Positions 9,633 to 55,610 of a DNA stretch of 64,000 bases are shown here, piece after piece. The notes beneath the pieces are model-generated. The model saw nothing but the letters and a program-made list of their open reading frames with translations. It was not told where the DNA came from and made no database searches. This DNA comes from Octopus sinensis. Taxonomy: Eukaryota. The position numbers were made by a program, and so were the translations under genes. Where the stretch lies: NCBI RefSeq assembly GCF_006345805.1, contig NC_043004.1, positions 89,900,001 to 89,964,000 on the forward strand, read 5' to 3'. The stretch's first letter is position 1. Every line of letters starts with the position of its first letter.

Positions 9633-10802
9633 CGTAGCAGCAACCAGTTTTGATTTCCGTTTGTGACGACACTGGACTCATTTCATTGCCTAAAAATACT
9701 TCTATCTTGTTTATCATTAATTTTTTGAAAAAGAAAATTTATTGCTACTGCCATACCCGACCCAATATTCGGAGATGAAAAATTGCAAATGATGGGGAAA
9801 CGCGATATTCGTCATCAGCCTGCAAAACTACGCCTGAATGGAAAATTTGATAACAATCCGTTTAGAATCGAAAAAATCTTCAAGAAAACAAAAAAAGGAC
9901 CAGGTGTTTCCATTTTAAAGTTTAACTCTACGACTCTGAATTCTGTAGAAGGTCTGTCTGCAGAGATCAATTTAAAAATCAGATTAAATAAGATAACATT
10001 TAAGGATTGTATTATAAGTAAAGATAATGCAAGACAAATTGTTAAGCAGAATATTTAAAGTATAGATTAAAACAATAAGTCAAAAAAAGGGAAAAGGTGA
10101 GATCTGAAAATGCGTTAGATCCAACGTTAGTAAAATCCTAAAGTACCCCGAATTGGCAAGGTGCTTCGAATAATGAATAAATTGATATCCGGTTGGAAGA
10201 AGGGAAATAACTTTTGAACATTTCGTCATTGAAAACCTATTAAGAAGTCTCTCTGCCAAACAACTGTAAGTACATTTTGAATAATACGGTGTCGTTTTAA
10301 CTTTTTACAGTATACTAACCCTAATGATGACTTCTTATAATTATCGTTAAAAGTCTCTGTCAAACTCGAGCCGATAAAGGAGCACAGAACGTTGACACTG
10401 ATGTGCTAGAAATGGCAGCCAAAAAGTTGTTCAAACAACACCCTGCGGTCTTTGAAAAAGCTGTATACAATAGATTATGTAATCCTAGGTACACTTGTTT
10501 AAATAAAAATAGGATGATAACTTGACGTCTGACCGCCTGTTCAAGAAGAAGGGATGTTACACATTCATATTCTACACATGTATACCTACGTATACACATA
10601 GATATGAATGTGTAACACCGCCGTCTAGAAACTTTAATATAACAATTGAAACATTAATTTTGCTCTGAAAGTTGCTTACCTTGAAAATAACTTATCTGCG
10701 AGAATACGTTTCATACTTATATCATGCCTATGCCTTTTGTTGTCTAATAACCTTACTTATGGTTGCTAAAGTTTGAGGTTATGATGTTCTTATGACCTAC
10801 AC

Positions 10803-11397
10803 CTGAGGGTGTCTTGGCATCACTCAGCAAGACTTTTGTTAGCCGCTCTCCAGCCATCTATTTAAAACTGTATACAGCTATGGTACGACCACACTTGGAA
10901 TTCGCATCATCAGTTTGGAATCCCTATCTTGCTCAGAACATTGACCTCCTGGAATCTGTTCAGAGACGTGCAACCAAACGCATACCCTCCAGACACCTAC
11001 CATACTCTGAGCGCCTGGTTTCCCTGGGCATGGATTCACTGAAGCTCCGGTGTCTGGCGATGGACTTGGTAAACACCCACAAAGTTATCAACCACCTCAC
11101 CAACAACAACACTGAACACCTTTTTGATCTCCATGTGTCTAACACACGTGGACATGCCTACAAAGTCAGAAAACAACACAGCTCCCATGACTTTCGGAAA
11201 CATTTTTTCACGCTCAGAGTTGCTGAAGCATGGAACAAACTGCCTGCGTCAGTTGTTGACTGCCATGACACTGCATCCTTTAAGGCCCTCATGCTTTCCG
11301 AAATCCGCCGAAACTACACCTGATTATACATACACTTTAGATGAATTGTAGTGCACCTGAGCACTGTACACAATGTTTTTTTTTTATTATTTTATTA
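10803..11397 (+). mobile_element. 5'-truncated CR1-clade LINE (ORF2 C-terminus, 3'UTR, (TTA)n tail)
   Basis: LYTAMVRPHLEFASSVWNPY...VQRRATK...NTRGH...RKHFFTLRVAEAWNKLP; tail gtgcacctgagcactgtaca followed by tta repeats. Confidence 0.92.
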
Positions 11398-26092: not shown

Positions 26093-26698
26093 TGTTTATG
26101 AAAAGAACAATGTTCATGAGAGGGACATATTCCTTGGAGAGGGACATATCTGTGCTATATGAATGGCAGTTTGATTATATAGTACTGAAGAATAATCAAG
26201 CCAATCTCAATAATTAGCAATGCTTGTTAAGTAATATATAATTGATTACAACACCAAGTGCACTGTAAAATCTAAGTAGTGTTTCACCCATACCATTTCC
26301 CAAATATTCCTTTGACTATTGTAATAATACGATTGTTATGATACGTATGGTTTCCTAAAATCTAGTTTTTAATATCAGTGTATTTGTGTTCACTATAGAT
26401 TGAGTCTTGAAACAAAATATGCTTATCCAAATTTTGCAATTGTCTTGCAAGTCATTATATATATATATATATATATATATAACTAATGTAGGATAAAATC
26501 TTTTTCAGGAAAAAAATTTTATCAATGGCCAGCATATCAAAAAATACCTTTAAAGGTTAAATTTATAAATAATTTACAAAATTAGGGCAAAATAAAAATT
26601 CTAATGCCAATTATGCCAAAAAAAGACAAAATTGTCAATAACCATTATAATTTATGCGTCTCAAAACAAACCGACAAAAATTTTTTTTAAATCTGTTA

Positions 26699-26759
26699 TT
26701 ACCGTATTGGTCCCAATTTCGGGGTTAATTCATAAGAATTTTCCCCTCTTCAGCGATAA
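26699..26759 (-). ncRNA. Type I hammerhead ribozyme (family H1)
   Basis: Minus strand: TTATCG-CTGAAGA-GGGG(aaaattcttatgaattaa)CCCC-GAAA-TTGG(ga)CCAA-TA/CGGTAA. Confidence 0.85.
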
Positions 26760-27178
26760 ATATGTGAGATATAAGTTAAATACTTACTCATACCCATGGA
26801 AAAAGCAAGTACTAAGTCCTGAGCAGACCTAAGTACCCCAAATATATCCAAAATAGAAAGTCTTCGGCACATCTCGAGAAACGTGTGATTTGAACTAGAA
26901 ACTTTCACAGAGTGAGAGAATCCGGAAGTGAACACTATTCAATTTATAAATAATGTAGGATAAAATTTTTTTGGGGAAAAAAATTTTATCAATGGCCAGC
27001 ATATCAAAGAATACGTTTATAAATAATCTGTGAAAGTTTCTAGTTCAAATCACACGTGTCCCAAGATGTGCCAAAGATTTTCTATTTTGGATATATTTGG
27101 GGTAATTAGGTCTGCTCAGGACTTAGTACTTGCTTTTTCCATGGGTATGAGTAAGTATTTCACTTATATCTCACGTAT

Positions 27179-27239
27179 TTATCGCTGAAGAGGGGAAAAT
27201 TCTTATGAATTAACCCCGAAATTGGGACCAATACGGTAA
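27179..27239 (+). ncRNA. Type I hammerhead ribozyme (family H1)
   Basis: Stem I TTATCG/CGGTAA, CTGAAGA 27185-27191, stem II GGGG/CCCC, GAAA 27218-27221, stem III TTGG/CCAA, AUA site with predicted cut after 27233. Confidence 0.87.
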
Positions 27240-27367
27240 TAACGGATCTTTTAGAAATTTCTATCGGTTTGCTTTGAGATGCATAAATTATAATGGTTAT
27301 TGACAATTTTGTCTTTTTTTTCAGCATATTTGGCATTAGAATTTTTATTTTGCTCTAATTTTGTAAG

Positions 27368-27404
<37 letters not shown>

Positions 27405-29361: not shown

Positions 29362-29969
29362 CTATAAACAAATGATTCGTTGGTTATTAAGGATTTTTTT
29401 TCCTTAATACTAAAATAATGTTCAAATTTTGTTCAGATTCCTTGAGGCACAAGTCTGAATTACACTATTTTTTACATATTATAAGTGAAGGACAGATATA
29501 GCTGAAATAGGAAGTAATTTTGCATTGTCACATTTTCTCTTTCCAAAAGTAATTAGCAAACAAATAAATAGATAAAAGCAATGAATAGCAGTTGACTGTT
29601 AGGATTTTATTAGTTTGGTTATGTGTTAGTATAAGGCAACATAAGTATGCAGGAGGAAACTGGGATATTGATGCTGATGCTTTCTGAGGACATCAGTGAA
29701 ACAAATTAGCTCCTTGCACTATAGCACTCACTATTGCTATTTATAGGCCAGCAATGGTGCCATTTTAATACAGTTATAAATACTTTCAGTATATTTAGTT
29801 TCATTAATAAAGGAATAAGCCATTATTTTTTTGGTCAATCTTCTCAATGACAATATTACAAATTTAACCCTATTAAGTCAACTGATTTCATGACACAGAG
29901 TTTTTTTAAATAATTAAATCATTATGATTTAATTTTAAAAGACCATGCTTTTAAGGATCATTTCTTAAG

Positions 29970-30230
29970 TATGTGTCACAACGGTATCCGATTCCTTTGA
30001 TCGGTCAACAACATCACGATGATGCGAGATTGTATTGAGTCCTGAGCGTGAAGCAGGATCTCCTGTATCGTTCGTTACTCTGCCTTCAACGAACGTGAGG
30101 AATCCATTGAAGATCGTTCTTGAGAGGTTTAATAACTTCTTAAAGAGGGACTCGATACTTTCTGAGTGATTATAAGAAATGGCGGTGCCCCAGCATGGCC
30201 ACAGCTTGTGAGCTGAAACTAGATAAAAAT
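29970..30230 (+). mobile_element. Probable LINE 3' end sharing its tail with SINE B
   Basis: Unique body followed by ggcggtgccccagcatggccacagct-tgtg-agctgaaactaga; the same tail occurs at 48197-48240 (-). Confidence 0.5.
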
Positions 30231-34726: not shown

Positions 34727-36671
34727 GCATTCCCAGATTACACACGCAAATTCACAGGTAAAATATATATTTTAAAAAAAATAAATAAATAAATAAATTC
34801 ATGAATGGATGTTGTCTTCACAGCGATAATTCTCTTCTCAGTACATGAGTCATTCCAGTAAACACGATTTTTTGCACTTCCTGTAGGGCTGGTAAGCCTG
34901 GTATCATTTTCAAATAGGTTTCAGTACCTTTTTTTATCATTCCTAGAGCTCCTACAATCACTGGTACTGTAGTCGCCTTGAGATGCCACATTTTTTCAAT
35001 TTCTATTAGCAAGTCTTTATATTTACTGATTGTGTCAAATTCTTTCGCCGCTATATTGTGATCGCAAGGAATACTCATGTCAATTAATAAACACATCTTT
35101 TTTGTCTGATCTTTTATAATAATATCCAGTTTATTAGCTTTTATAGTCTTGTCGGTGTGTACGGGGAAGTCCCATAGAATCGACACATTTTCTCCCTCAG
35201 TCACAGCTTCAGGATGGTGTTTATACCATTTGTCGGCAGTTTTGATTTTATAATGCTGACATATTGTCCAGTGTAAATACTGGCCAACTCTGTCATGTCT
35301 TGCTTTATATTCTACAGTTGCTAAAACTCTACACCCTGAGATTAGGTGGTCTGTAGTTTCAATCTCATCGTTATAGAATCAGTATTTTGGGTCAGCTCCA
35401 TTTTTTATCACATTGGCTTGGTAGTTCCGGGTTAATAAGCTTTGGTCATGAGCAGCTAATATGAAACCTTCACTCTCTGCTTTTAGCCCTGAGCTTCGTA
35501 ACCATTGGTGCGTGTGTTTCTGGTCGACATCAGCTTGTTTGCTACGGGCCACATACTTGCCATGGAGAGGTTTCTGTTCCCATCTGCTAGCTAAATTTTC
35601 ATGTGCTTTTGTCTTTGCAATTAATTTTATTTTCTTTGCAGCTGCAGTTGGCGCATTTCCTTCAGCCTGATCAACCAGGTGGGTATCTAAGAGATCAGCC
35701 GCGAATTTTTTGCTCTCTTTGAGAATGGAGTGAAGTTTTATCGGTCTTTCATGTTTTCAACAAGTTTTAGCATCCAATCGTTGGTTGCTTCAAGGTATTT
35801 GGCCAATCCGATTGAGGTGGTTCTGTATGTAAGTTCAAGCTGGATCAAACCTCGACCTCCCTGAGCTCTGGGAAGGTAAAGGCGATCCACGTCTGCCTTT
35901 GGATGGTGCATCTTATTAGAAGTCAGTAGCTTGCGGATTTTTCTGTCAATTTTCATTATTTCACTGGTATTCCAGTTAAGCATATTGAAGCTATAAAGAA
36001 CAACTGGGACTGCTAAGGAATTTATGGCTAACACCTTATTATATGCATTCAGTTCAGACTTCAGGATTGCTTGAACTCTTCTATAACATTCCTTCCTAAC
36101 CTTCTCTTTCATGTTTGCATGCTGGATACCAGAGCCTTCATTTATTCCTAGGTATTTATAGGTTTGTTCCTGCTCAAGCTCCTGTATTATTGTTTCGGCA
36201 TCTAATTCGATTGAACTAGACTTTACCGATTCCCCTTTCTTAAAAGTGGCTTTGTCACACTTTTCAAGGCCAAAATCCATCCCGATAACATCACTGAATC
36301 CTTTCACAGTATGTAGTAGTCCTTCAAGCTCTTCATCATCTTTGCCATATAGTTTTAAATCATCCATAAAAAATAGATGGCTTATTTCCCTGTTGTCAAT
36401 TCTGTAGCCATATCCTGTTCTATTCAGTTCCCTTGAGAGTGGTATTAGTGCTATGCAGAAAATTAGTGGTGAAAGTGAGTCACCTTGGAAAATTCCACAT
36501 TTTATGCTAATGTTATTTGAGCGCAATACTCCATTAGAATGATATAATTGGAGCTTCGTGTTCCATAGTGACATATTATACTTTAAAAAATCTGTAGTCA
36601 CAGGAGAAATTTTGAAAATGTCCAGCAATTTCAGAATCCACGAATGTGGTATGCTGTCAAGGGCTTTTTTT
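34726..36671 (-). mobile_element. 5'-truncated RLE-type LINE (R4/Dong-like): RT, decayed CCHC, restriction-like endonuclease
   Basis: RT motifs KKALDSIPH, GIFQGDSLSP, HLFFMDDLKLY, YKYLG, RLYLPRAQGGRGL; ETTDHLISGC knuckle; endonuclease ILWDFPVHTD...KLDIIIKD...LLIDMSIP...KYKDL...VPVIVGALG. Confidence 0.9.
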
Positions 36672-46419: not shown

Positions 46420-46422
<3 letters not shown>

Positions 46423-46861
46423 CATAAAGTGCCTCAAATGGGCTGGAGTATTTCTATTTTGGATGTATTTGGGGTACTTAGTTGTGCTCATGACTTAGTA
46501 TTTGCTTCTTCAATGGGTATGAGTAAGTATCTCATTTATTTCTTTTGCCACATGTATCACTGACGAAGAGAGGGCTCTTAGTAGCTAACTCTGAAATTGG
46601 TCCGATATGGTAATAATGGAATTTTTTAGAAATTTCTGTCGACCTTTTTTCGAGTAGCATGCGTATTGTGAAAAAATTATATGGTTAATGGACAATATGT
46701 CCAATTTTTCGGCATATTTGGCATTAGAATTTTTTTCTTTTGCCCTCATTTATGAATTGTTTATAAATTTAACCGTTAAAGGTATTTTTTAATATGCTGG
46801 CCATTGATAAAATTTTTTTCGAGAAAATATTTTTTTTCGAAAAGAATTTTATCCTCACATT

Positions 46862-46863
<2 letters not shown>
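46420..46863 (+). mobile_element. Diverged copy of hammerhead element family H1 inside (AT)n
   Basis: tttctattttggatgtatttggggta...atgggtatgagtaagtat...atatgctggccattgataaaattttt homologous to 26484-27367. Confidence 0.85.
46555..46612 (+). ncRNA. Type I hammerhead ribozyme (H1 variant)
   Basis: TATCA-CTGACGA-AGAG(...)CTCT-GAAA-TTGG(t)CCGA-TA/TGGTA; predicted cut after 46607. Confidence 0.8.
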
Positions 46864-48236: not shown

Positions 48237-48286
<50 letters not shown>

Positions 48287-48504
48287 CAATATAGGGTGGC
48301 AAAAAATTTTGTAGAATTTTTTTGCCACCAGCGGCCTAGTGGGAAAAAATTAAATAGTCATAGACCATTTTTAAGTTCAACATCACAATCAAGGAACGGC
48401 CATAATAGGCCATTCACCCACTAGAAATAACAGCCAAAAGCTTCAACCGCAAAATAACATCAATTCCGTAAACCAGGAGAAAATTAAAAAACATTTACCC
48501 TGTA

Positions 48505-48611
48505 ATTTCTTATACGATGCACCGTTTCATCTACTGTTTAATGGTAAACTAACCTGATTAAATTAAATCAAGCCAATCTACCATAGGCCCTTAGATTCAT
48601 CAGTAAGAAAT
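48505..48611 (-). ncRNA. Type I hammerhead ribozyme with long stem II (family H2)
   Basis: Reverse complement of 49185-49291. Confidence 0.85.
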
Positions 48612-49184
48612 AGCCAAGTCGGAACAGATATTTTTCACGAGGCATTCCCGTCCCTGCCTCGGCAATATCTGACCTAAAATTTTCAAATCATCGCACTCGC
48701 GCCAAATTTATCGGCAGCAAATATGGTAGATTGGCTTGATTTAATTTAATCAGGTTAGTTTACCATTAAACAGTAGATGAAACGGTGCATCGTATAAGAA
48801 ATTACAGGGTAAATGTTTTTTAATTTTCTCCTGGTTTACGGAATTGATGTTATTTTGCGGTTGAAGCTTTTGGCTGTTATTTCTAGTGGGTGAATGGCCT
48901 ATTATGGCCGTTCCTTGATTGTGATGTTGAACTTAAAAATGGTCTATGACTATTTAATTTTTTCCCACTAGGCCGCTGGTGGCAAAAAATTTCTACAAAA
49001 TTTTTTGCCACCCTATATTAATTAATTATGAATTTTCTGGTTAATTCCGTAATGGAATCGGCGGCTTATATTTATTTGCTGCCGATAAATTTGGCGCGAG
49101 TGCGACGATTTGAAAATTTTAGGTCAGATATTGCCGAGGCAGGGACGGGAATGCCTCGTGAAAAATATCTGTTCCGACTTGGCT

Positions 49185-49291
49185 ATTTCTTACTGATGAA
49201 TCTAAGGGCCTATGGTAGATTGGCTTGATTTAATTTAATCAGGTTAGTTTACCATTAAACAGTAGATGAAACGGTGCATCGTATAAGAAAT
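49185..49291 (+). ncRNA. Type I hammerhead ribozyme with long stem II (family H2)
   Basis: Stem I ATTTCTTA/TAAGAAAT (8 bp), CTGATGA 49193-49199, stem II ATCTA...TAGAT, GAAA 49268-49271, stem III CGGT(gc)ATCG, GUA site with predicted cut after 49283. Confidence 0.88.
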
Positions 49292-49412
49292 TACAGGGTA
49301 AATGTTTTTTAATTTTCTCCTGGTTTACGGAATTGATGTTATTTTGCGGTTGAAGCTTTTGGCTGTTATTTCTAGTGGGTGAATGGCCTATTATGGCCGT
49401 TCCTTGATTGTG

Positions 49413-49445
<33 letters not shown>

Positions 49446-49450
49446 ATTAC

Positions 49451-49519
<69 letters not shown>

Positions 49520-49520
49520 C

Positions 49521-49572
<52 letters not shown>

Positions 49573-52947: not shown

Positions 52948-54037
52948 TGAGCTGGCAGAAACGTTAGCACGCCGGGCGAAATGCGTAGTCGTATTTCGTC
53001 TGTCGTTACTTTGTGAGTTCAAATTCCGCCAAGGTCGACTTTGCCTTTCCTCCTTTTGGGGTCGATAAATTAAGTACCAGTTATGCACTGGGGTTGAGGT
53101 AATCGACTAAATACCTATGTCTGTCCTTGTTTGTCCCCTACGTATGTCAGTTGATACCATCTCTGGCAAGGGCTTTGAAATAAAACCAAGAAGAAGTTCC
53201 AGACACCCAGCTGAGTACTTGACAGACACTGACTTTGCTGACGACATCGCTCTTATCAGTGATTCTCTCTCCAATGCCCAGTCTCTTTTACAATCTCTTG
53301 AACAAGCCTCAAATTGTGTATGTCTTTACCTCAATGAGACCAAAACTGAATACATAAACAAGTGCCTGTCCAACAGTGATTGCATCATCCACACTCTCAA
53401 CAGTGCACCTTTAAATATGGTTTCTGATTATAAATATCTTGGGTCATACATATCATCATCTGGAAAAGACTTTCTAACTAGAAAGGGTATGGCCTGGTCA
53501 GCCTGTAATGACATGCATAAGATCTGGTCATCAAATCTAAGTAGAGACTTCAAACTTGAAATATTCAAAGCCACAGTCGAACCAATCCTACTATATGGCT
53601 CAGAAACCTGGACGTTATCAAAGAAGCTTGAGAGGCGGTTGGATGGAACCTACACTCGCCTCCTTATGAGAGCTCAAAATCTCTCGTGGAGGCGCCATCC
53701 AACTAAAATGCAAATATATGGGAAATTACCACCTGTGTCATCTCTTGTGAAAGGTAGGAGAGTCCAGTTTGCTGGACATTGTTGTAGAGCTGAAAAAGAA
53801 GTAATTTCTACTCTTCTCCTCTGGAAGCCATCTACTCGCAACACCAGAGGGCACACACTCTCCTACCCTGATGTAATCTCCAGGGATACAGGCATCCAGC
53901 AACAGGACCTCCGTAATGCTATGATGAACCGTGAAGTCTGGCGCAACATGGTAAATTCCATTGTCTCGACCACGGTCGAACAATGATGATGATGATTGTC
54001 CCCTCTATGTTTAGCCCTTTGTGAGTAATAAAGAAAT
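52948..54037 (+). mobile_element. SINE A split by a LINE insertion
   Basis: SINE body 52948-53139 resumes at 53996. Confidence 0.88.
53140..53995 (+). mobile_element. Young 5'-truncated RTE-group LINE with open ORF2 frame
   Basis: LTDTDFADDIALIS, YKYLGSYI, ILLYGSETWTL, FAGHC; no stops over about 280 codons; stop merges into a (TGA)n tail; TSD ttgtcccct at 53131-53139 and 53996-54004. Confidence 0.92.
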
Positions 54038-54174: not shown

Positions 54175-55610
54175 TCATGACATCTCACTCCTTTCAATTG
54201 CTGAAAAAATCCTCTCAAGAATGATTTTAACTTGAACAAATTTTAAATAGAATAAATAGAACAAATTGCTGAACATTGTGTATCCTGTAAGTAGTGTGAT
54301 TTCAGGGCTGGCTGTGGAATAGCAGATATGATATTTAGCTGGCAGCAGGTGCAGGAAACGGTTCACAAATATGAAAAAGATTTCTCTGTAGTACTTGTTG
54401 ATCTCTCGAAAGCCTTTGACATAGTGTGTCAATAAGCATTATAATAATAATAATGAAATTATTGTATACAGTGCTCAGGTGCACCACAACTTGTCAGAAA
54501 GTGCATATATAAAGTACATGCAGTAATGTAGAAATGTCTGGAAAGTGAACATGCTTGTGTGTGTATCAAGTGTAGTGTTGGCGAATCTCAGGAAGCATGG
54601 AAGTTTTGAAGGATGCAGTGCTCCGACAACTAACAACCGATGCCGGCAGTTTGTTCCACGCTTCAGCAACTCTCAGCGTGAAAAAATGTTTCCTGAAGTC
54701 ATGGGAGCTGTGCTGTTTTCTGACTTTGTAAATATGTCCACGGGTGTTAGATGGGTGGAGTTTGAAGAGGTGCTCAGAGTTATTGTTTGTGCGATGGTTG
54801 ATAATTTTATGGGTGTCTGCCAAGTCAGCTGCCAGACGTCGGAGTTTCAATGTGTCCATGCCCAGGGAAGTAAGGCGTTCAGGATATGGCAAATGCCTGA
54901 TGGAGGGTATTCTTTTGGTTGCACGTCGCTGAACAGCTTCCAGACGATTGATGTCCTGGGCAAGATAGGGGTTCCAGACCGGTGATGCAAATTCCAGGTG
55001 AGGTCTTACCATAGCTATATAAAGCCGCAGATAGATAGCCGGAGAGCGGCTCACAAAGGATTTGGTGAGTGATGCCAAGACACCCTCAGCCTTCTTGACA
55101 ATTTTAGCGATGTGTTTTGTCCAACGCAAATCACTGTTGACAATAACACCCAGGTCACGTTCACTTGAAGACTTTTTGAGACTAGTGTTGTGGAGGGAGT
55201 AGGTGGACGCTGGGTTTCTCCTCCCAAAATGCATGGTGGTACATTTGTCCACAGCCAGCTTGAGTTGCCAGTCCATGATCCACTGCTGCATTGTGTCCAG
55301 GTCTGGAAAGTCTTATCTATACAAAAGTTGAATGTGATTATGGTATTGCATAGGGATATGAAACCCTTTGCTGTCTCAAATGGGGATCAACCACAGCAAT
55401 TTGAAGTGAGAAATTGTACAAAACTAGGATGCATGTTGTTGTTCACAAAGATTTTCAAACAGAAGAACAGAGATAAACGTTTTCTTCAAACTTTCATTTC
55501 ATATTCCCCAAAATATTCAGACAGTGGATATTTCTAAAGAAAACCAGGCTCAGTTTACCAGCTGATGATCAGAAATAAGTAGCTCTGAACATTGGAGTCT
55601 TCCACTTATA
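54175..55610 (+). pseudogene. Old RTE RT fossil split by a CR1 insertion
   Basis: ISLLSIAEKILSRMIL..FRAGCGIADMIF..VDLSKAFD (54175-54430) continues as LHRDMK...FEVRNCTKLGCML (55320-55450). Confidence 0.7.
54436..55310 (-). mobile_element. 5'-truncated CR1-clade LINE
   Basis: 241-aa open frame WQLKLAVDKC...ERDLGV...VRPHLEFASPVWNPY...WNKLP; 3' tail gtgcacctgagcactgtata plus (TTA)n. Confidence 0.92.

Follow-up and report, generated by a model that had tools for sequence, protein, structure and literature searches.

Animal non-LTR retrozymes are tandem repeats of type I hammerhead ribozymes that give rise to circular RNAs, and Penelope-like elements have been proposed to mobilize them (PMC7229834; 10.64898/2026.07.22.740005). 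In the accessible parts of both sources, the case for this mobilizing enzyme has so far been argued through co-occurrence and sequence kinship. Penelope-like elements are described as inserting with inverted arms, with a 30- to 40-bp tail often found at one end only, and with a bias toward microsatellites (PMC8557442; PMC3846280). For the inversions, the available text of PMC3846280 suggests that an antisense template is copied by self-priming, and does not settle the mechanism. A Penelope-like protein that is predicted to dimerize cleaves and extends both DNA strands in vitro, and reverse transcription starts at two internal RNA sites bounding the tail, with no strand difference between them in the available account (PMC11167929). 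Two linked questions follow from this literature: how the inverted and tailed structures of Penelope-like elements originate, and which enzyme moves animal retrozymes.

The locus described here bears on both. It lies at 48280-49414 of the window, the 64-kb stretch of Octopus sinensis contig NC_043004.1 that was analyzed, and consists of two head-to-head arms of a non-coding 489-nt unit, inserted in (AT)n (locus L069, family H2; Table 1). Unit numbering begins with the first base past the hammerhead cut (u1 = 48795). Two copies of the cleavage-site text CGTA/TAAGAAAT are present, ending 489 nt apart at 48794 and 49283. The stretch 48722-48925 recurs as a direct repeat at 49211-49414 (204 nt, no mismatches), and the inverted arm (444 nt) differs from the plus unit by three mismatches. 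An earlier note on this DNA had claimed the spacing, the inverted and near-identical arms, and the flanking (AT)n, and all were confirmed. Its observation that no reverse transcriptase (RT) ORF is present also stands: the longest ATG-initiated ORF in a trimer of the unit encodes 66 aa, and tblastn with two Penelope-like proteins found no match in the window. The 489-nt monomer has a folding z score of -8.1, with equal stability in none of 100 shuffles. Target-site duplications are unreadable within (AT)n, and the junction of u131-133 with (AT)n is present in contigs from three of four independent sequencing runs. Elsewhere the window contains a full-length U3 snoRNA (29939-30170, plus strand; 125 bits), stop-free stretches that by eye resemble fragments of LINE-type ORFs (10796-11320, 34821-35378, 53111-53983, and 54569-55312), and, throughout, numerous SINE-like repeats and microsatellites.

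Table 1. Features of the two-arm insertion (window coordinates) and positions of copies of a second hammerhead family, H1
Feature	Position	Strand	Basis
Left (AT)n target tract	48240..48278		
B arm (u279-489, then u1-233, read 48723 to 48280), ending at fixed site B beside (AT)n	48280..48723	-	
Complete type I hammerhead in the B arm; cut predicted between 48513 and 48512	48505..48611	-	motif scan
Head-to-head arm junction, 2-nt overlap, microhomology-like	48722..48723		
A arm (u417-489, one full unit u1-489, then u1-131), ending at fixed site A beside (AT)n	48722..49414	+	
Hammerhead 3′ half without the upstream CUGAUGA; GUA cleavage site at 48794	48774..48802	+	
Complete 489-nt monomer, from one cleavage site to the next; hairpin-rich, 36.8% GC, all ORFs ≤66 aa	48795..49283	+	
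Near-palindromic hairpin, then AU-rich stretch predicted unpaired: internal copy of priming site B (u229-239)	48978..49033	+	
Complete type I hammerhead; CUGAUGA at 49193, GAAA at 49268, predicted cut after 49283	49185..49291	+	
Right (AT)n target tract	49413..49570		
H1 copies	26475-27382, 46420-46862; L115:7185-7946; L200-L219		

H2 is a family of several hundred young copies of a protein-free, 489-base ribozyme repeat. A search of the 2.72-Gb assembly returned 991 candidates, of which 39 were scored, and an exact 32-mer across the cleavage site (the ribozyme half-motif) occurs 899 times genome-wide. Exact 3′ ends followed by (AT)n, counted once per site on the forward strand, number 305 for end A and 435 for end B, so that genome totals are roughly 600 and 870. 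We mapped 99 loci, namely, the 39 best-scoring ones and 60 of the 64 loci on the first 133 Mb of contig C1 whose A or B end matches exactly; the other four, going by position, are divergent A/B pairs. Arrays contain up to 16 full units, joined as seamless 489-nt multimers. With hundreds of dispersed copies that differ in their internal junctions and share the same two ends, a single-copy locus, chance, or a single-locus artifact is excluded. None of the 99 mapped loci runs into an ORF or forms its terminal repeat, and these copies are not the LTR ends of an annotated Penelope, the other outcome against which the earlier note had set its proposal. Penelope-like ORFs near loci L032 and L161 were considered as linked partners and rejected, with (AT)n microsatellite or unrelated sequence intervening. 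H2 is likewise not itself an autonomous Penelope-like element, as an RT and GIY-YIG ORF is absent within it, nor a plant LTR retrozyme, as its motif is type I in head-to-tail multimers rather than type III in two LTRs. Each tandem unit contains one type I hammerhead, without LTR organization and with a GC content below 50%. On every membership feature that sequence can address, H2 behaves as an animal non-LTR retrozyme.

A hand-written motif scan found complete type I hammerheads on the plus strand and on the minus strand of the locus (the latter with CUGAUGA at 48603) and none at the first plus site, where the parts present are the 3′ strand of stem II, GAAA, stem III, GUA, and the 3′ strand of stem I. 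The H2 hammerhead comprises an 8-bp stem I, CUGAUGA, a 5-bp stem II capped by a 19-bp hairpin, GAAA, and a 4-bp stem III with a palindromic UGCA loop, with the cut predicted after GUA. Rfam, run on the whole window at E ≤ 1, did not list a hammerhead, probably because of the 68-nt stem II domain; families with long-stem-II hammerheads that Rfam overlooks are therefore probably undercounted. In the 12 core columns (62 to 88 loci per column), two cells deviate, whereas N7 is free to vary (T in 55, A in 15, and C in 12). Four base pairs, two in each of stems I and II, are altered on both sides. In a compensatory test on 21 recurrent haplotypes (of 141 distinct haplotypes, 27 recurred, and four of the six left out were indel variants), both-side changes filled 18 cells, as many as in 0 of 500 shuffles; the number of such pairs was not significant (125/500), and given the kinship of the haplotypes the 18 cells reflect about four events. 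In one subfamily the loop III palindrome has changed from UGCA to UAUA, with palindromy kept. Together, these patterns indicate that the hammerhead structure of the unit has been conserved under selection.

The first plus unit does lack CUGAUGA, as the earlier note had seen. Its further step, that this locus would need trans-cleavage to release a monomer, is not strictly required: the lone CUGAUGA is predicted to be able to pair alternatively with the upstream half-site, through an open-stem-II fold of similar energy (-218.7 versus -220.4 kcal/mol for the two alternative folds; free MFE, -227.8 kcal/mol). Many other H2 loci contain at least two whole ribozymes. In the predicted, unconstrained 489-nt circle, stem III is mostly unformed (p about 0.02) and the active fold is 2.5 kcal/mol less stable than the minimum, a prediction that counts against the mechanism proposed below. 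The unit was found as contigs in four runs guessed to be RNA; these contigs carry no strand, end, or circle information and are not taken as a sign of expression. In one sequencing run (X1), the window interval 49275-49305 is represented by a loose-end consensus from two contigs with five clustered A-to-G changes over the cleavage site. The cluster hints that double-stranded RNA formed by the inverted arms may have undergone A-to-I hyper-editing, in a run that is not on record as RNA.

The strongest regularity of the family lies in its 3′ ends. BLAST detected two arms at 80 of the 99 loci, and 74 remained once six that extend beyond the fetched stretch had been set aside. At 71 of these 74, one arm stops at end A (u126-137, about 131 nt past the cleavage site) and the other at end B (u229-241, about 235 nt past it), a spacing of about 104 nt. 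There were no A/A and no B/B loci, and the other three have one atypical end each, at u182 (which looks interrupted), u445, and u118. Against an independent 50:50 choice of ends, and with the three atypical loci scored as failures, the A/B rule has a p value of about 4e-18. Among the 19 single-arm loci, five show by eye a B arm of 10 to 20 nt facing a long A arm. The 5′ starts, on the other hand, are scattered across the whole unit, with a modest excess in u1-16 (14/179 versus 5.9 expected; p = 0.002, for a window picked post hoc). The circularly permuted endpoints suggested by the earlier note are accordingly found among the 5′ starts, which vary, and not among the 3′ ends, which are fixed at two sites; and its inverted 5′ piece is likely a second primed arm with a fixed end of its own rather than a by-product. 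Its broader proposal, a young, non-autonomous, multicopy hammerhead tandem with Penelope-type architecture, copied from multimeric or circular RNA, is supported. A TTGATT motif precedes end A, end B, and the rare u445 end of L056 by 5 to 9 nt, and a hairpin lies immediately 5′ of A and B. Two further ribozyme families described below (H1 and H3) and the tail of an autonomous Penelope-like family have ends with similar CCT..ATT..AT text. The TTGATT and hairpin text near the ends is a candidate recognition signal.

We propose, with a confidence of roughly 60%, that the two-arm repeats in (AT)n were inserted by a Penelope-like RT/GIY-YIG enzyme that used both strands of a single DNA cut as primers on one RNA molecule, probably a circle. 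In this proposal, tandem arrays would be transcribed, and the hammerhead would excise 489-nt monomers that are ligated into circles. A Penelope-like protein, probably a dimer, would bind the RNA around u130-235 and nick both (AT)n strands. Reverse transcription would begin at A from one 3′ end and at B from the other, and each cDNA would extend a variable distance, often several turns, which would yield homogeneous multimers. The two cDNA ends would then be joined head-to-head, often through microhomology of a few bases, with fill-in to follow. The A-B interval would correspond to the Penelope "tail," at about three times its usual 30 to 40 nt. Among 80 internal junctions, 46 overlap by at least 1 nt, 4 are blunt, and 30 are gapped; the gapped junctions count against twin priming, as do 81 private alleles confined to one arm and one B/B locus in family H1. 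We are more tentative, and would put it somewhat below even odds, about the specific form in which an RT dimer on one ribozyme-made circle nicks both strands of a microsatellite and runs two simultaneous rolling-circle reverse transcriptions, one from each DNA strand, that begin at fixed sites roughly 100 nt from each other. If this is true, the Penelope tail and the inverted pseudo-LTR would be products of a single obligatory twin-priming event, and circles of about 470 to 540 nt (at least three families here) would be its minimal natural substrates. Twin priming is known from LINE-1, where both target strands prime cDNA on one RNA and the resulting head-to-head inversion is joined by microhomology; the poly(A) end serves the first primer, whereas the second pairs with the RNA at an internal position that varies. 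Unlike LINE-1, H2 has two fixed internal sites, and its arms may overlap and run for several units.

That both arms derive from one template is consistent with their similarity. At each of the 53 loci where the arms share 100 or more columns, the arm-to-arm distance is smaller than the median distance to other arms, and median divergence is 0.3% between arms within a locus versus 2.2% to the arms of other loci. Twenty locus-private alleles are common to both arms (16 loci), compared with the 81 found in one arm only. Gene conversion or assembly polishing could partly account for the similarity. Units within an array diverge by a median of 0.5%, versus 1.9% between arrays, and divergence is lower within in 42 of 42 arrays. 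This low within-array divergence suggests repeated passage through a monomer, fitting the copying of monomer circles. A reading we consider unlikely keeps twin priming by a Penelope-like enzyme but makes the template a linear read-through transcript of the array, with homogeneity and length arising from unequal crossover. Of 15 arms with at least four full units, six are without shared variants; in others, shared variants recur with a period of three units (L032 plus arm, through nearly three turns), the pattern expected of a trimeric circle, or of two (L033, L139, and partly L039), or fall in neighboring units (L034, L037, L120, and L062). Such sharing could come from oligomeric circles, read-through transcripts, or later unequal crossover. 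It counts against a pure monomer circle, as it needs oligomeric templates or later unequal crossover, and in L032, L033, L039, L120, L139, and L062 it favors the linear transcript. So does the fact that some arms begin right past the cleavage site, where a ribozyme-cut linear RNA would have its 5′ end, and so does the insertion in vitro that, in the available account, had no need for hammerhead cleavage (PMC11167929). Against a linear template, subfamily arrays as far as 9 to 10% from the family median are only about 0.5 to 1.3% divergent internally, and arrays copied solely from arrays should shrink through 5′ truncation in each round.

A second alternative, which we regard as improbable, is that just one of the two ends is a reverse transcription start; the cDNA would then continue on an antisense template, either antisense RNA or one reached by self-priming, and the endonuclease would make the other fixed end by cutting the copy there. 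Self-priming of this kind has been proposed for head-to-head inversions of rotifer Penelopes (PMC3846280), and the available text of PMC8557442 ascribes the tail to endonuclease-mediated resolution. Both H2 ends contain ATT-like motifs, which match the cut preference in vitro, and in 14 of 71 loci the arm starts nearly coincide modulo 489, as expected from a hairpin fold-back. Were one cDNA to fold back on itself, however, one arm would fit inside the other. Such containment is possible at 44 of 71 loci and fails at 27, including the locus at 48280-49414, so that a simple fold-back of one cDNA is rejected for these 27; at some loci, e.g., L147, L155, and L169, the arms do not overlap at all. 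Moreover, the longer arm can be either one (medians, 471 and 527 nt; Spearman coefficient, 0.39), and both tail boundaries are reverse transcription start sites in vitro in the part of PMC11167929 available. The near-strict rule of one A and one B, together with arms that could not have formed as fold-backs, argues for coupled priming on both DNA strands. Finally, it is very improbable that the H2 unit is the terminal repeat of an unseen autonomous Penelope-like element, or a DNA-level satellite, that carries the ribozyme along. In favor of this idea, few of the GIY-YIG candidates were scored in the partner search (150 of 5,029), Xenopus retrozymes are, in the accessible text, often homologous to Penelope terminal repeats, and eight of nine dimers tested in that study failed to cleave in vitro (10.64898/2026.07.22.740005), but none of the 99 loci continues into an ORF, the units form seamless multimers, dispersed copies with fixed (AT)n ends and variable 5′ truncation are unlike a satellite pattern, and the hammerhead has undergone compensatory change.

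With coupled priming by a Penelope-like enzyme as the preferred reading, the genome can be considered for candidate partners. The GIY-YIG search recovered many Penelope-like copies. Fifty GIY-YIG loci from the scored candidates were compared with the H2 unit, and no DNA homology above chance was found, apart from the B-end motif of about 20 nt that H2 shares with another non-coding ribozyme family (H3, below); the lack of a homologous autonomous element among these 50 counts against the proposed mechanism. Intact RT and GIY-YIG ORFs of 781 aa and 775 aa, ending in (AT)n, occur in the same genome and carry the CxxC linker that clade descriptions in the available text of PMC8557442 assign to Neptune/Nematis. 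The 781-aa family (L104-L109) is young, with copies 98 to 99% identical; its ORF is preceded by an overlapping 479-aa ORF without a Pfam match, and motif scans found no hammerhead in it. It has two (AT)n ends 42 nt apart, with 438 and 135 exact matches. On contig C1, 40 short ends and 13 tail ends were counted, and all six divergent close pairs are short/tail. Among 20 loci fetched, 13 are single-armed or tandem, 4 are short/tail, 1 is short/short, and 2 have a non-canonical second end. That the best enzyme candidate family is mostly single-armed, with exceptions, counts against coupled twin priming.

Two other non-coding ribozyme families share the layout. H1 has a type I hammerhead in a unit of about 470 nt, two arms in (AT)n, and ends about 155 and 238 nt past the cleavage site; 11 of 20 fetched loci are two-armed, 10 of them A/B and 1 B/B, and an exact pattern for its A end had three matches, too few to be informative. 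H3 (L106/L107:6860-7975) has a unit of about 535 nt with a long stem II and a CAATTG loop III, two arms, and two ends, and its B end shares a motif of about 20 nt with the B end of H2. The left flank of L041 looks like an H3/H2 chimera. The end rule holds less strictly in H1 and in the intact RT/GIY-YIG family than in H2. Further Penelope-like families (L102, L111, L073, and L161) have minimal hammerheads with a palindromic loop III in their 3′ repeat, and unrelated long-stem-II hammerheads occur at L102:8021, L102:8416, L107:1351, and L116:2615. At L080 (contig C12467), an SLX1-like GIY-YIG stretch contains several in-frame TAA and TGA codons; this contig may be foreign, with another genetic code, or the stretch a pseudogene.

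The retrozyme class and each ingredient of H2 are already known. In literature searches covering titles and abstracts outside subscription journals, we did not find an H2-like family, a counted one-of-each end rule, or a retrozyme with Penelope-type paired ends or a tail of about 100 nt. Like animal non-LTR retrozymes, H2 consists of non-coding tandems, from dimers to long multimers, with one type I hammerhead per unit and low GC (37%), and its hairpin-rich monomer occurs alongside Penelope-like elements in the genome. Its 489-nt unit exceeds the range of 150 to 450 bp given in the accessible part of PMC7229834 and falls within the 51 to 972 bp given in that of 10.64898/2026.07.22.740005. Unlike animal retrozymes, it holds a 68-nt domain in stem II. 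Two-arm insertions, fixed paired ends, and a microsatellite target are not described for retrozymes in the accessible text of either source, and the word "inverted" does not occur in that of PMC7229834. Circles and cleavage have been demonstrated for animal retrozymes, whereas for H2 both are predicted.

The closest match in insertion structure is to the Neptune-type Penelopes, with a C-terminal GIY-YIG domain, as far as their available descriptions go: head-to-head, 5′-truncated arms, partial tandems, microsatellite targeting, a hammerhead located before the 3′ end, and a choice of two 3′ ends, the extension being described at one end only. H2 differs from them in having no ORF, in the wider spacing of its ends (about 104 nt versus 30 to 40 nt), and in being mostly two-armed, with both arms possibly multimers. 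The one-of-each pairing counted here (71/74) is noted as optional in the same descriptions of Penelopes. Chlamys MRC1 (PMC8557442) is likewise non-autonomous, Penelope-type, and inserted as multicopy head-to-tail arrays, but in the accessible account most of the Chlamys elements have no hammerhead, and their 3′ ends are similar to those of the autonomous partner, a kinship not found for H2 among the 50 GIY-YIG loci compared. The ends of H2 bear the Penelope signature, and the family thereby supplies insertion-level evidence on the origin of Penelope inversions and tails and on the enzyme that moves animal retrozymes. A 489-nt RNA, two mapped start sites, an (AT)n target, and intact candidate enzymes, all in one genome, make it a small system for testing in vitro.
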